Shown here in pieces: positions 13,940-60,404 of a DNA stretch of 64,000 nt (its first letter is position 1; every line of letters starts with the position of its first letter). Under the pieces are notes generated by a model that did no database searches, was not told where the DNA came from, and was given only the letters and a program-made list of their open reading frames with translations. The stretch covers positions 1,557,580-1,621,579 of the forward strand of contig OZ000551.1 in NCBI GenBank assembly GCA_963923945.1, given 5' to 3'. This stretch comes from Alphaproteobacteria bacterium (lineage in GTDB: Bacteria; Pseudomonadota; Alphaproteobacteria; G963923945). The position numbers and the translations under genes are program-made.

Positions 13940-14100
13940 TCCAGATTCAAGAACGCCGGAATCAAGAACGCCAGACTCAAGAATGTTGGGTGCGGCAGAA
14001 AGAAGAGCCGGGCGCGACACGGAGCCAGATGACATGGAGCCAGATGACATGGGACCAAACAAAGTGAAATAAAAGAGCCCGTATTTTTACCGCACCACCC

Positions 14101-15678
14101 CTATTTCACCCGTGGCAATTCTTCAAAAGTATGAAACGGCGGCGGTGAAGACACCGTCCATTCGAGAGTGGTTGCCCCGGCACCCCATGGATTGGCAGCC
14201 GCTTTACGCTTACGATAAAAGGCTTCTAGAACCACATAAACGAAGAAGAAAGCCGCAGCCACTGAAATATAAGCCCCGATACTAGAGACATAATTCCAAC
14301 CGGCAAAAGCATCCGGATAATCCGGGATTCGCCGTGGCATGCCAGCCAGACCGGAGAAATGCATCGGGAAGAAGGTCAAATTGACCCCGATAAATGTCAG
14401 CCAGAAATGAATTTGACCCAGGCGTTCGTTATATTCACAGCCGGACATTTTGGAGAACCAATAATAAAAACCGGCAAAGATAGAAAACAATGCCCCCATC
14501 GACATCACATAATGGAAATGGGCCACCACATAATACGTATCATGCAAGGAGACATCGACCCCGGCATTGGCCAAGACCACCCCGGTCACCCCGCCCACGG
14601 TAAACAGGAAAATCATGGCCAAGGCGAACAACATCGGCACCTTAAACTCAATCGATCCCCCCCACATGGTGGCGATCCAGCTGAATATCTTAATTCCCGT
14701 CGGCACCGCGATCACCATTGTTGCGGCAACAAAATAAGCCCGCGTGTCAACATCCAAGCCAACCGTATACATGTGATGGGCCCAGACGACAAAACCAACA
14801 AAACCAATCGCCACCATGGCATAAGCCATGCCGAGATAACCGAAAATCGGCTTATTAGAAAATGTTGAAATCACATGGCTGATGATACCAAAACCAGGAA
14901 TGATCAAAATATAGACTTCCGGATGGCCAAAAAACCAGAAAAGATGCTGATACAACACCGGATCACCACCCAATTCAGGGCTGAAAAAACCGGTCCCAAA
15001 ATTGCGGTCGGTCAACATCATGGTAATCGCGCCGGCCAGCACCGGTAACGACAACAACAGCAAAAAGGCGGTCACCAAAACCGACCAGGCAAACAAAGGC
15101 ATCTTATGCAAGGTCATGCCCGGCGCGCGCATATTAAAGATGGTGGTGATAAAATTAATCGCCCCTAAAATAGAGGATGCCCCGGCCAGATGTAGGCTGA
15201 AAATCGCCATATCCATGGCCATACCGGGTTGGCCGGTGGTCGATAACGGCGCATAAAGAGTCCATCCGGCCCCCACACCACCATCAACGAAAGTTGAGGC
15301 AACCAAAAGCACCAAAGCCGCCGCCAAGAGCCAAAAACTGACGTTATTCATGCGCGGAAAAGCCATATCCGGTGCCCCGATCATAATCGGCAAGAACCAG
15401 TTGCCAAACCCGCCCATCATGGCCGGCATGATCATAAAGAACACCATCAAAAGGCCATGTGCGGTGATCCAGACATTGTAACGTTGGTAATCACCGTCAA
15501 GAATCTGAATCCCCGGTTCGGCCAGTTCGACCCGCATGTAAAGCGAGAATATGCCGCCGATCAGCCCGGAAACAATCGCCAAAATCAGATAGAGAGTCCC
15601 AATATCCTTATGGTTGGTGGAGTAAAGATACCGCTTCCAAAAAGTTGGGACATCATGTTCGGCCTGGGTGGTGCTCAT
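14101..15678 (-). CDS. ctaD: cytochrome c oxidase subunit I (aa3-type)
   Basis: The 525-aa, 12-TM product carries the canonical His ligands and the [12 protein letters not shown] and HHMYTVG motifs. Confidence 0.95.
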
Positions 15679-15831
15679 AGCTTTTTACTCTTTCGTTTTT
15701 TTGTTCGTTTTTGCAGTTTCACAAGAGACGTTTTTTATTAAGGAATTTTATTAAGAGATGGTTGTTTCGGAAAGTCTTACAAAAACCTCAGATAAGACGG
15801 TGACGAAATCATCAAGAACAGTTTCAGACTC

Positions 15832-57400: not shown

Positions 57401-59158
57401 ATCGGTCAAAATCGGCTGGGGAACTTCCAGATGCTGATGCCCCTGGCTCCCTTCAAGATCAAATAAATTGGGTCGTGGTCCGACCAGGGAAGCCAAGGAC
57501 ATGACCAATTCTTCACGGATCGGATCAATGGCCGGGTTGGTCACTTGGGCAAAACATTGCTTGAAATAAGAATAGAGGGTTTTTGGCTGATCAGAGAGCA
57601 CCGAAAGCGGTGTATCCACCCCCATTGAGCCGGTGGGTTCTTGACCCGATTGGGCCATCGGCTCCAGGAAGAAGGCAATATCCTCGCGGCTGTACCCAAA
57701 GGCTTGCTGACGCTTGAGCAAGGCTTCCGGGTCATGCTGGGCGGTCTGAGTTTTTGGCGGGGGTATGTCGGCCAGCCGGATTCGGTTGGCGTGCAACCAT
57801 TCGCGATAAGGATATTCGGCAACAATCCGGCTTTTGATCTCCGAATCATCAATGATTCGCCCTTCCTCAAGATCAATCAGCAGCATTTTCCCCGGTTGTA
57901 GACGCCATTTTTTGACAATCTTGTCAGCGGGGACATCCAGGACTCCCATCTCTGAGGCCATCAACACCATATCATCATCGGTCACCAGATAGCGGGCCGG
58001 CCGCAACCCATTGCGGTCAAGGGTGGCCCCGATTTGGCGGCCATCGGTAAAAGCGATGGCTGCTGGACCATCCCAAGGTTCCATAAAGGCGGCATGATGT
58101 TCGTAAAAAGCCCGTCTATGTGGATCCATCAGATCATTATCGGACCAGGCCTCGGGGATCATCAACATCATGGCATGGGCCAGCGAATAGCCACCCGCCA
58201 ATAGGAATTCAAACGCGTGATCAGCACAAGCTGAATCCGACAATCCTTCCGGAATCAATGGCCATACCTTGTTGATATCAGAACCCAAAACCTGCGACGT
58301 AAGGGATGCCCGACGGGCATTCATCCAGTTCAGATTGCCGCGCAATGTATTGATTTCGCCGTTGTGACAGAGCAGCCGAAACGGTTGCGCCAAACTCCAT
58401 GTCGGAAAGGTATTGGTGGAAAAACGCTGATGGACCAGAGACAAAGCGGATTCAACCCGCTGATCGCGCAGATCAAGGAAATAACGCCCGACATCGGCGG
58501 ATAAGACCATGCCTTTATAAACCACGGTCCGGGACGATAGGGAGGCGATATAGAAATCATCCTGGCCAATGCCTTGGTTTAAGGCCCAATTTTCGGCTTG
58601 TTTACGGATGATGTAAAGGATGCGTTCAAAAGCGGCTTGGTCACTATAGTCCTTCCCAGCCGCAACCACGACTTGACGTATGAGGGGTGCTTTTCCTTTG
58701 ACCGTTTCACCCAAAACCGAAGAGTCACAGGGAACATCGCGCCAGCCCAGAACATCTTGCCCTTCGGCGGCAATCAATTCCTCCAACTGTTTCTGGCAGC
58801 GATTATGGAGATTGTTATCCATCGGCATATACACCATGCCCAAGCCGTAGCGACCCGCTGGCGGCAGTTGGAACCCCAGGCTTTCTGCTTGGGCACGTAA
58901 AAATCGATCCGGGAGTTGCAACAACATACCCGCTCCATCACCGGCTTGCGGGTCGGCCCCCACCGCGCCACGATGGGCCAAATTTTTCAAGATGGTCAGA
59001 CCGTGGTCAATGATGGTGTGGCTTTTGACATTTTTTACATTGGCGACAAAACCGATCCCGCAGGAATCTTTTTCATGACGGGGGTCATACAGTCCTTGCG
59101 CTTCAGGCAGACCGACCGAATATGAAGATGCAGAATATGAAAATGTTTGTTGTCGCAT
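54467..59158 (-). CDS. gltB: glutamate synthase large subunit
   Basis: The 1563-aa product has an Ntn amidotransferase N-terminus (CGIGFVA), an FMN/3Fe-4S central domain and a GXGXG C-terminal domain. Confidence 0.95.
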
Positions 59159-59528
59159 GAATATATCTGGTCATAACCGCTGTAATCGCATCCAATCATT
59201 GGGGTGATATTTCCCATATGGGATGCCAAGCTTTGTCCGGCAACTGTTTTCGGGGCAAGGAAACTAGCGGAAAAAGGCTCTTCAGGTAAAGCCCCTGATC
59301 AGATTGGTTGATTTTTTAGGCACAGAAAGGGCTGGTTGATCCTCCATGAAACCTTATGATAACCTCTATTTTATGGTCTCCTCTGGTTGCTGGTTTTGGC
59401 TTTCTTGACATTACATTTGGCATAACGGATAGATTGCCAATATAGGAAATCAGGCAACGGTATGAGACAAAAGAATTATCATTAAGAAAGAATTATCATT
59501 AAGTAAGAGACAAGAGTGAGAGACAATT

Positions 59529-60404
59529 ATGAAGAAAATTTTTATCGGCATCGGTCTGTTGGCTGTCTTTATCATCGGTGTGGGGATTTATGTCGCTAGT
59601 AATCTCGGCTCCATCGTTAAAGCGGCGATTGAAGAATATGGATCGCAAGCCGCCGGAGCCCCGGTCACGGTTGGCAGCGTTGATATCGAATTGGATCAGG
59701 GGAGTGCGGCCATTCATACCCTTTCTCTGGGCAACCCCCCTGGTTTCAACGCCTCCAGCGCCTTTGATATGGGCCGGATCAGCGTCACCCTGGCCCCGGA
59801 TTGGAAACAAGGGGATACGATTGTCATTGATGAAATTATGGTCGATAAGCCAAAAGTCACGTATGAATTGGCCGAGCAGGGGAGCAATTTCGACATTCTC
59901 AAGGCCAATATGCAAAAAGCCGCTGGCGACTCCTCGAAAACCGGTTCAGATGCGCAATCTAAGGAATCCCAATCCAAGGAATCCCAATCCAAGGAATCCA
60001 AAGTCTCGGTCATTATCAATAATTTCCGGCTCCAAAATGGGGAAATTGCCGCGACCGCCCCTATCCTCGGCGGAAAAACGCTCAGCTTGCCGTTGCCGAA
60101 TCTGCATCTGACCGATATCGGTAAAGATAAAGGCGGGATTGGTCCCGATGAAGTTGCTCAGAAGATTTTGAGTGCTCTGGAAAGCAATGTAACCAAATCG
60201 GTAACCAATCTTGATTTTGGCGTGGTCGGTGATGCCGCCAAAGCGGCTAAGGAAAAAATCGGCGCGATCACCGAAGGCGTGACGGATCGTGTTGATGAGA
60301 TGGTTGGTGGTGATGCCGGAGCGGCGGCTGATGCCATCGGTAAAAACTTGGATAAGAATCTGGATGATGCTGGGAATGCAGTGAAATCTTTATTCGGCAA
60401 TTAA
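59529..60404 (+). CDS. membrane-anchored hypothetical protein (DUF748/AsmA-like N-terminal region) with in-frame KESQS x3 tandem repeat
   Basis: The 291-aa product has an N-terminal TM (IFIGIGLLAVFIIGVGIYVA). An internal 15-bp x3 DNA repeat (59955-59999) codes SKESQSKESQSKESK. Confidence 0.5.
   Translation: MKKIFIGIGLLAVFIIGVGIYVASNLGSIVKAAIEEYGSQAAGAPVTVGSVDIELDQGSAAIHTLSLGNPPGFNASSAFDMGRISVTLAPDWKQGDTIVIDEIMVDKPKVTYELAEQGSNFDILKANMQKAAGDSSKTGSDAQSKESQSKESQSKESKVSVIINNFRLQNGEIAATAPILGGKTLSLPLPNLHLTDIGKDKGGIGPDEVAQKILSALESNVTKSVTNLDFGVVGDAAKAAKEKIGAITEGVTDRVDEMVGGDAGAAADAIGKNLDKNLDDAGNAVKSLFGN

Follow-up and report, generated by a model that had tools for sequence, protein, structure and literature searches.

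What process has scattered short repeats, placed head to tail, over an otherwise ordinary alphaproteobacterial chromosome? The question is raised by a stretch of 64,000 nt of contig OZ000551.1 (hereafter the window), taken from the genome of an uncultured alphaproteobacterium (hereafter W), in which short tandem duplications (TD) are found at gene starts, within coding sequences and in spacers. An earlier note had listed seven such arrays, most of them with a 15-bp unit, and had proposed that they are a lineage-specific signature, possibly with regulatory or antigenic-variation consequences. We consider it probable that the signature reflects a neutral duplication process, specific to a lineage and filtered by selection. 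This process is ongoing and acts at essentially any sequence.

The reality of the repeats was examined with Tandem Repeats Finder (TRF) and with a self-match caller. All seven listed arrays were recovered, at the positions first given or a few bases away, six of them by TRF and the pair at 51542-51567 by the self-match caller. The peptides quoted for them are correct: MSSGSMSSGS and ESGVLDSGVLESG in the ctaB region, EKPAQEKSAQEKPAQ in cpaE and SKESQSKESQSKESK in the DUF748-like gene. The list was nevertheless an under-count. At its strict setting the self-match caller identifies 16 TD in the window, with periods that all lie between 12 and 18 bp, whereas 100 block-wise dinucleotide shuffles gave 0.1 on average and never more than 2. 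With a looser threshold plus TRF the count for the window rises to about 30 TD, whose units measure 11-18 bp (about 14 on average) and are mostly present in two or three copies. The copies are identical in about half of the arrays, and many arrays show point differences among copies. Two divergent-promoter spacers, 16741-17385 and 20234-20854, are particularly rich: each contains six or seven different arrays, which cover about one third of its length. Chance was rejected as an origin, both by the comparison with shuffled sequence and by an excess of about 20-fold over control genomes.

Protein searches against 5.8 billion proteins identified only two close relatives of W (contig of 2,099,932 bp). 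They are referred to as S (ERZ25067576:ctg10958_20x_c, 2,069,867 bp, loci L001 and L082 used) and T (ERZ22157276:ctg9667l, 32,975 bp, locus L083 used). All three are metagenome assemblies, and the organisms are uncultured Alphaproteobacteria whose genomes measure about 2.1 Mb. In the block formed by ppk, gltB and the DUF748 gene (about 11.5 kb aligned), nucleotide identity is 80% between W and T, 77% between S and T and 75.5% between W and S; the next-closest homologues are much more distant (Magnetovibrio for DUF748, 34% identity for CpaE). As controls we used 80 loci of other Alphaproteobacteria, corresponding to ctaD neighbourhoods of mostly free-living taxa (1.43 Mb, GC 28-70%). With the loose caller, TD density is 3.4-4.2 per 10 kb in each of W, S and T and 1.18 per 10 kb in the controls, where mainly 6-, 9- and 12-bp coding repeats are found. 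The difference is larger for exact TD with units of 11-18 bp in at least two copies: the clade has 18 in 118 kb, fifteen with two copies and three with three copies, and the controls have 11 in 1.43 Mb, a density about 20-fold lower. TRF arrays with a period of 11-18 and a score of at least 50 likewise amount to 2.96 per 10 kb in the clade and 0.28 in the controls. The signature is missing in L084, a more distant syntenic relative (GC 0.67). The proposal of a lineage-specific mutational signature is thus upheld by a high density common to three related genomes and not seen in the controls. No exact array of at least two copies with a unit of 10 bp or of 19-100 bp was detected in the 118 kb of the clade, and the upper bound of the unit lengths is real.

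The distribution of TD between genes and spacers was analyzed with the gene maps of the window and of three related loci, in which 100.7 kb are coding and 17.5 kb are spacer. As the earlier note had supposed for promoters, the same process acts on non-coding DNA: spacers contain 30 TD (17.1 per 10 kb, or about one per 600 bp) compared to 14 in coding sequence (1.4 per 10 kb). At the densities measured, each complete genome would contain several hundred TD. The unit is a multiple of three in 13 of the 14 coding TD and in 11 of the 30 spacer TD (Fisher p = 7.7e-4), and the latter proportion is about the one-third expected without constraint. Spacer units of 11, 12, 13, 14, 15, 16, 17 and 18 bp were all observed, most of them being of 12-14 bp, in addition to one 9-bp array. 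Because spacers hold all unit lengths and genes almost only multiples of three, the keeping of the frame is the effect of a selection filter, and the in-frame repeats found in genes are the survivors of selection on a broader 11-18 bp process. Arrays of 15 bp that preserve the frame do exist, as first claimed, but neither this length nor frame preservation is a property of the process itself. The sole out-of-frame coding TD, of 14 bp (45061-45086, 1.86 copies), lies within the open reading frame (ORF) 44909-45289, whose weak match to an IS5-family transposase (NF033580, E = 3.7e-9, under the curated threshold) covers only the C-terminal half of the enzyme and which, judged by this match, looks like an insertion sequence (IS) relic. 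Elsewhere genes retain in-frame TD (12, 15 or 21 bp) at tolerant positions, namely N-termini, linkers and loops, where 4 to 10 residues are added in the form of peptide repeats of 4-5 residues. The proteins concerned are CpaE, CpaF, CpaD, GltB, the DUF748 protein and the Bax1-I protein in the window, and, in the relatives, the Ppk of S as well as TadE and LpqE-like proteins.

The age of the duplications was assessed by alignment of orthologous sites, in three genomes for the ppk-gltB-DUF748 block and in two for the tad locus. Every well-defined TD in the aligned blocks is an insertion private to one genome, and S and T each have their own sets of TD at other positions. The only array common to two genomes is a weak 12-bp one at W 49549, which is also present in T. 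The TD events are young, to judge from the identical copies in about half of the arrays, and each young one is private to one genome. The cpaE gene of W is 30 bp longer than that of S, and distant CpaE proteins are without any unit; cpaD is 12 bp longer in W than in S. More generally, the repeats of cpaE and of the DUF748-like gene, whose absence from homologues had been suggested as a check, and also those of cpaD and gltB, are single-copy or missing in the nearest relatives, and distant homologues lack them. A conserved sequence feature, invariant and present in distant orthologues, is contradicted by the cpaE, DUF748-like, cpaD and gltB sites, which all differ. Two sites are recurrent: the C-terminal site of gltB is expanded differently in W and T with no expansion in S, and the cpaC-cpaB spacer contains about 2.4 units in W and four or five related units in S. 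Arrays thus appear to be continually created, then lost by contraction or by point-mutation decay. By a rough calculation a 2 x 14-bp repeat would gain a substitution after about 0.036 substitutions per site, and from the perfect spacer TD (15 in 17.5 kb) it would roughly follow that a TD arises in spacers for every few tens of point substitutions. The three-way alignment provided few clean indels for a polarised insertion/deletion spectrum.

To characterize the founding events we examined the junctions of the 15 perfect two-copy TD. Similarity extends beyond the two units by 0 nt in nine cases and by 1, 2 and 3 nt in two cases each, and the expectations calculated for chance extensions of 0, 1, 2 and 3 nt are 56%, 28%, 10% and 4%. 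The extensions fit the chance distribution, and junction microhomology is absent. No motif common to the duplicated units was found; the best 3-5-mer, ATGA/TCAT, occurs 17 times where 9.7 are expected, an excess without significance once multiple testing is accounted for. Some cores have been duplicated again with different unit lengths (16943-17000, 20533-20571 and the gltB site), which indicates local hotspots, or else repeats that provoke further events. Exact three-copy arrays are present at 16879 and 59955 in W and at 2115, 10883 and 18003 in T; copy number has therefore also changed in register, by ordinary slippage, after the founding event.

These observations can be accommodated by a two-step model. 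In a first step, the strands would be cut 11-18 nt apart, by two nicks or in a staggered double-strand break; both overhangs would then be filled in and the ends rejoined, which would leave a target-site duplication without an insert. In a second step, once two copies exist, slipped-strand mispairing would add or remove whole units. This second step would explain the frequent exact three-copy arrays and the difference in copy number at the cpaC-cpaB spacer. That the fill-in of staggered breaks founds the first duplicate is a tentative proposal. We prefer it to a replication or flap defect, to retention and to mobile-element footprints, because the lack of junction microhomology and the narrow length window match what a filled-in and rejoined staggered break would produce. 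The TD have the two expected properties, no homology at the junction and a length that a stagger could set; these are consistent with such breaks without being specific to them.

Several points weigh against this preference and against the wider reading. The nuclease or nickase of the first step and its end-joining activity are hypothetical: no ku/ligD-type end-joining gene was found within the 118 kb accessible, and small genomes often lack ku/ligD. The clade DNA examined amounts to these 118 kb of three genomes, each of about 2.1 Mb as a whole. Two-copy units shorter than about 10 bp are indistinguishable from chance, so the lower bound of the 11-18 bp window partly reflects what can be detected. 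That events cluster at the same cores might also be due to replication, in which a repeat already present would provoke further ones. Finally, the few TD of the controls fall in the same 11-18 bp window and are also without microhomology, and the founding mechanism may be universal, with only its rate or the retention of its products unusual in the clade.

An origin in replication is also possible, to a lesser degree. TD would arise by slipped-strand mispairing or by mis-processing of flaps at forks or Okazaki junctions, at a rate raised by the loss of a guard; Pol I 5' nuclease, the Xni flap endonuclease, ssDNA exonucleases (RecJ, ExoI and ExoVII, for example) and UvrD are candidates. Short duplications are raised in yeast rad27/FEN1 mutants and in E. 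coli polA 5'-exonuclease mutants. Slippage does affect these repeats, as seen from the exact three-copy arrays, the same cores were duplicated again, and small genomes with pseudogenes and an IS relic would fit the loss of repair genes. On the other hand, duplications due to slippage or flaps need short direct repeats at their bounds, and nine of the 15 perfect TD have zero homology, the rest being chance-like. Slippage should not give a sharp 11-18 bp window with no array at 19-100 bp either.

More doubtful is an explanation by retention, in which TD would arise at similar rates in all Alphaproteobacteria, be purged from the large populations of free-living species and be kept in this clade, which is probably host-associated, by a small effective population and a weak deletion pressure. 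The control TD just mentioned, of the same size and equally without microhomology, speak for it, as do a proportion of spacer DNA of 12-20% in the clade, a phosphoenolpyruvate carboxykinase (PEPCK) pseudogene and the transposase relic. It is opposed by the density of TD, which in the controls is still about 10-fold lower per kb of spacer if all control TD are assigned to spacers (an estimate that assumes about 10% of spacer in the controls, among which there is no reduced-genome symbiont). It is further opposed by the perfect copies of about half of the arrays, which imply a fast turnover and not a slow accumulation.

The staggered-break reading has a stronger form, which we find unlikely. The clade would possess an activity devoted to cutting the chromosome everywhere with a stagger of 11-18 nt; the cuts would be resealed after fill-in and would leave target-site duplications without inserts. 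Candidates would be a domesticated enzyme of the transposase, integrase or casposase type, or a nickase that works together with end joining. If true, this would be a previously undescribed mutational mechanism in bacteria, one that lengthens spacers, remodels promoters and start codons and seeds short peptide repeats in proteins.

It is quite improbable that the TD are footprints of mobile elements, that is target-site duplications left by an insertion later lost, or by abortive integration through a transposase, an integrase or an enzyme akin to casposases. The TD do have the geometry of target-site duplications, with a length in a fixed range and no homology, and casposons give target-site duplications of 14-15 bp; moreover the window contains an IS5 relic and an exact 18-bp direct repeat that brackets a 544-bp segment (20262/20824). 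However, the copies of each TD abut with no element between them, and neither the 544-bp segment, nor the hotspot spacers, nor any miniature inverted-repeat transposable element has dispersed copies in the 118 kb. Duplications of the IS5 family are of 2-9 bp, the duplications made by one enzyme rarely vary over as wide a span as 11-18 bp, and the loss of a bacterial transposon normally removes one copy of the duplication.

Adaptive variable repeats, either contingency or antigenic-variation loci or repeated regulator-binding sites, are very improbable, and the suggestion of regulatory or antigenic consequences was not sustained. TD are indeed found at promoters and gene starts (17342-17420, 31105-31140 and 51542-51567) and in Tad pilus genes. 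Yet each unit has a different sequence, only two or three copies are present, coding TD keep the frame and so do not switch expression on or off, positions differ among relatives, and most of the proteins are cytoplasmic or housekeeping (CtaB, TldD, Ppk, GltB, CpaE, CpaF). An assembly or sequencing artefact, to be envisaged as W, S and T are all metagenome assemblies, is hardly credible, because three independent assemblies show the same pattern, the reading frame is respected, copies differ by point changes in many arrays and the insertions align cleanly against orthologous sequence.

The arrays of the window are distributed as follows. In the cytochrome oxidase cluster, a 15-bp unit is repeated 2.9 times at 13941-13983, directly upstream of the Met42 codon of ctaB (13939-13937), in the ctaD-ctaB spacer or a possible 5' extension of ctaB. 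A second 15-bp array (14016-14052, 2.5 copies, perfect over 14021-14052) doubles an ATG-containing segment (ATGTCATCTGGCTCC, minus strand). The ctaD-coxB spacer contains a weak 13-bp array (15733-15755, 1.8 copies), and a degenerate 15-bp array of 3.2 copies (16679-16726, RFHSM/RFRLV/KFRSM) is located at the 5' end of the COX2 (coxB) ORF. The spacer that precedes tldD contains a 13-bp unit in three copies (16879-16917), a core (ATTAAGATCAAAA) that has undergone three duplications, with unit lengths of 15, 17 and 12 bp (16943-17000), a perfect 16-bp pair without junction microhomology (17148-17179) and a perfect 18-bp pair (17342-17377) that ends 9 bp upstream of the tldD ATG. At 17392-17420 a 15-bp unit (1.9 copies) duplicates the likely ancestral start of tldD (ATG TCG GAT, coding MSD).

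The second rich spacer adjoins the Bax1-I family gene, whose N-terminal codons contain a 12-bp unit (20201-20223, 1.9 copies). In the spacer are found a 16-bp pair (20348-20380), a near-identical segment duplicated by 12 bp and then by 14 bp with boundaries 1 nt apart on each side (20533-20571), a second 16-bp array (20644-20673, 1.9 copies) and an 18-bp array with 88% identity (20699-20733, 1.9 copies). Upstream of the aldo/keto reductase start and extending into it, at 20787-20865, a 15-bp array of 2.1 copies (20787-20816) is followed by a diverged 17-bp pair (20822-20865). The same spacer contains the exact 18-bp direct repeat mentioned above (ATGAGGATTGACCATAAA, 20262-20279 and 20824-20841), whose copies are 562 bp apart and enclose most of the spacer (20234-20854), with a third, diverged copy in tandem at 20841. 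It is the only striking non-tandem pair of direct repeats, its interior (20280-20823) is single-copy in the 118 kb, and it could correspond to a duplication with an insert or to a dispersed copy.

Several arrays concern the tad/cpa pilus locus. The N-terminus of cpaF contains a 15-bp unit in 2.5 copies (26033-26069, TVNQG TVNQG MV), and cpaE a 15-bp unit in three copies (26779-26823, EKPAQ EKSAQ EKPAQ), of which one unit is present in the sister genome S and none in distant homologues. A perfect 12-bp pair in cpaD (27794-27817), a 14-bp array of 2.6 copies upstream of cpaA (31105-31140) and a perfect 11-bp pair upstream of an MIP channel gene (35941-35962) are not found in the sister genome. 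The 13-bp array of the cpaC-cpaB spacer (29560-29596, 2.4-3.1 copies) has a longer, related counterpart at the same site in that genome. CpaF itself (24002-26095) is unusually long, with 697 aa, and its secretion-ATPase domain begins only near residue 334; the 15-bp repeat is located in this N-terminal extension. Beyond cpaA, a weak 15-bp array (37557-37586, 2.1 copies, 87% identity) lies in a TadG-like gene, the spacer upstream of an HNH endonuclease gene contains a 17-bp unit in 2.3 copies followed by an A-rich unit of about 12 bp in three copies (39763-39838), and a 13-bp array (41644-41667, 1.85 copies) lies in the spacer upstream of tRNA-Leu.

In the remainder of the window, a 14-bp array abuts the ppk start codon (51542-51567, 1.86 copies), a 17-bp array is present in the gltB/DUF748 divergent spacer (59470-59508, 2.3 copies) and a 15-bp unit in three copies in the DUF748 gene codes for SKESQ three times (59955-59999). 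These three arrays are found in neither relative, and the last one is also missing in distant homologues. The 15-bp array in the C-terminal region of gltB (54688-54714, 1.8 copies) corresponds to a site where W has 27 bp more than the sister genome.

The gene content of the window is that of an ordinary alphaproteobacterial chromosome. From the left end are found genes for a phosphotransferase, RNase HI, redoxin, DsbD, threonine synthase and an M32 peptidase, then the cytochrome oxidase cluster (SURF1, CoxC, CtaG, CtaB, CtaD, CoxB), TldD, the Bax1-I family protein and the aldo/keto reductase, followed by a complete tad/cpa pilus locus. Further on are Asd, the HNH nuclease, tRNA-Leu, the IS5 transposase relic, Ppx, Ppk, GltD, GltB, the DUF748 protein, FliN and glutamate dehydrogenase. 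No classical surface antigen is present among the repeat-bearing genes; affected housekeeping genes include those for heme O synthase, TldD, polyphosphate kinase, glutamate synthase and the Tad pilus ATPases. The only structured RNA detected in the window with Rfam is tRNA-Leu. A 32-bp match with 91% identity links the tldD/Bax1-I spacer (19100-19131) to the Flp pilin region (31967-31998), which suggests, on sequence grounds, an unannotated second small flp-like gene in this otherwise repeat-free spacer.

Duplicated start codons blur gene starts. Both 15-bp arrays placed by the earlier note in a 5' extension of ctaB are present, but they lie upstream of Met42, the UbiA domain begins only at residue 72, and they may belong to the ctaD-ctaB spacer. 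The same doubt, spacer or translated, applies to the first 20 or so codons of coxB. In tldD the duplicated ATG-TCG-GAT is the probable ancestral start, other TldD proteins also starting with MSD. Start-site calls are consequently unreliable in these genomes where TD include start codons (tldD, ctaB, near ppk).

Other observations were made on the related genomes. Locus L074 of the uncultured alphaproteobacterium MFD06092.bin.1.175 (GC 0.62) contains three arrays of 15-16 bp in 21.6 kb (5849-5938, 6658-6702 and 17123-17154), one of them with six copies, and may represent a second lineage with a similar signature. The ATP-dependent PEPCK gene of S (L082:17865-18888) is split in two ORFs; aligned with the intact gene of T (L083:14760-16367), it shows three separate deletions of exactly 5 bp each and is therefore a pseudogene, with an oddly uniform indel size. 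An S-specific gene of unknown function (L082:13515-14045) contains a nested array with a 75-bp period, a 72-bp exact repeat and 21-bp sub-units, at a place occupied in W by an FkbM-type methyltransferase gene. At the edge of its locus T has an MmeI-like type IIG restriction-modification gene (L083:18853-20828), which is not found in the corresponding part of S.

The regions 91-10056 and 17386-18867 of the window are syntenic with L084, which belongs to a distant alphaproteobacterial contig of 2.06 Mb (GC 0.67). The common order is phosphotransferase, RNase HI, redoxin, DsbD, DUF179, GNAT, M16 peptidase, threonine synthase and M32 peptidase. In L084 the M32 peptidase gene adjoins tldD, from which the entire cytochrome oxidase cluster separates it in the window. 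No TldD orthologue of the sister genome is present among the 120 best-scoring database matches, although its CpaE and DUF748 orthologues did appear in database searches; this genome may lack tldD or carry a degraded copy of it (orthologue of 17386-18867). The second-best TldD match, P0208, a protein of 741 aa with two tandem copies of part of TldD, does not seem to belong to the clade.

What has been found is an evolutionary, mutational signature rather than a new molecular system. Lineage-specific indel signatures are seldom documented in bacteria, and the sharp length window together with the lack of junction homology points to a definable biochemical cause. The process adds spacer DNA as well as 4-10 residues to CpaE, CpaD, GltB and the DUF748-like protein, and the many young arrays would be very fine strain markers for an uncultured group. 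No paper describing such a signature in bacteria was found.

The signature can be compared with several known systems. Target-site duplications of transposons and casposons share direct duplication, a defined length and the lack of homology, but here the copies directly adjoin, with no element in between, and their lengths vary more than those of any single known enzyme. Phase-variable contingency loci, such as those of Neisseria and Haemophilus, also change copy number by slippage, but they consist of many copies of 1-7 bp units that shift the frame of surface genes; here units are of 11-18 bp in two or three copies, and with 13 of 14 coding TD in frame no shift of the frame or promoter spacing of a surface or virulence gene was seen. 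Flap-endonuclease mutants (yeast rad27, E. coli polA 5'-exonuclease) show a comparable genome-wide rise in short tandem duplications; theirs are flanked by short direct repeats and have a broad size range, and neither trait is seen in the clade. Mycobacterial Ku/LigD fills in overhangs. Experiments have shown that staggered breaks, once filled in and end-joined, give rise to homology-free small tandem duplications (Schimmel et al. 2021, PMC8355091). The traits in common are a duplication as long as the stagger, junctions that can do without microhomology and the absence of any restriction to particular sequences. That work, however, concerned eukaryotic cells or engineered breaks, and in the clade the source of breaks and the end-joining genes are hypothetical.

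Closer are the bacterial variable-number tandem repeats (VNTR) or minisatellites. As in these, units of at least 9 bp are arranged head to tail, are in frame when coding, and differ in copy number between relatives, here at the cpaC-cpaB spacer and the gltB site. VNTR correspond to few long-lived loci per genome, unlike the present arrays, which arise at about one per 600 bp of spacer and are almost never common to two genomes. In Ehrlichia ruminantium, tandem repeats are actively created and lost, mainly in non-coding DNA (PMC10710844, citing Collins 2005 and Frutos 2006). The resemblance includes a small-genome alphaproteobacterium, lengthened spacers and a process that differs between close relatives (PMC10710844). 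In the clade too, TD are concentrated in spacers (17 against 1.4 per 10 kb) and private to each genome. The units of E. ruminantium are often much longer and present in more copies. The clade differs from it by hundreds of independent and very young events of two or three copies, with units of 11-18 bp, in a lineage outside the Rickettsiales. The active repeats of E. ruminantium and ordinary bacterial VNTR are thus the closest described phenomena, from which the present signature is distinguished by its sharp 11-18 bp window, its very low copy number, its very high density of loci and its lack of junction homology.

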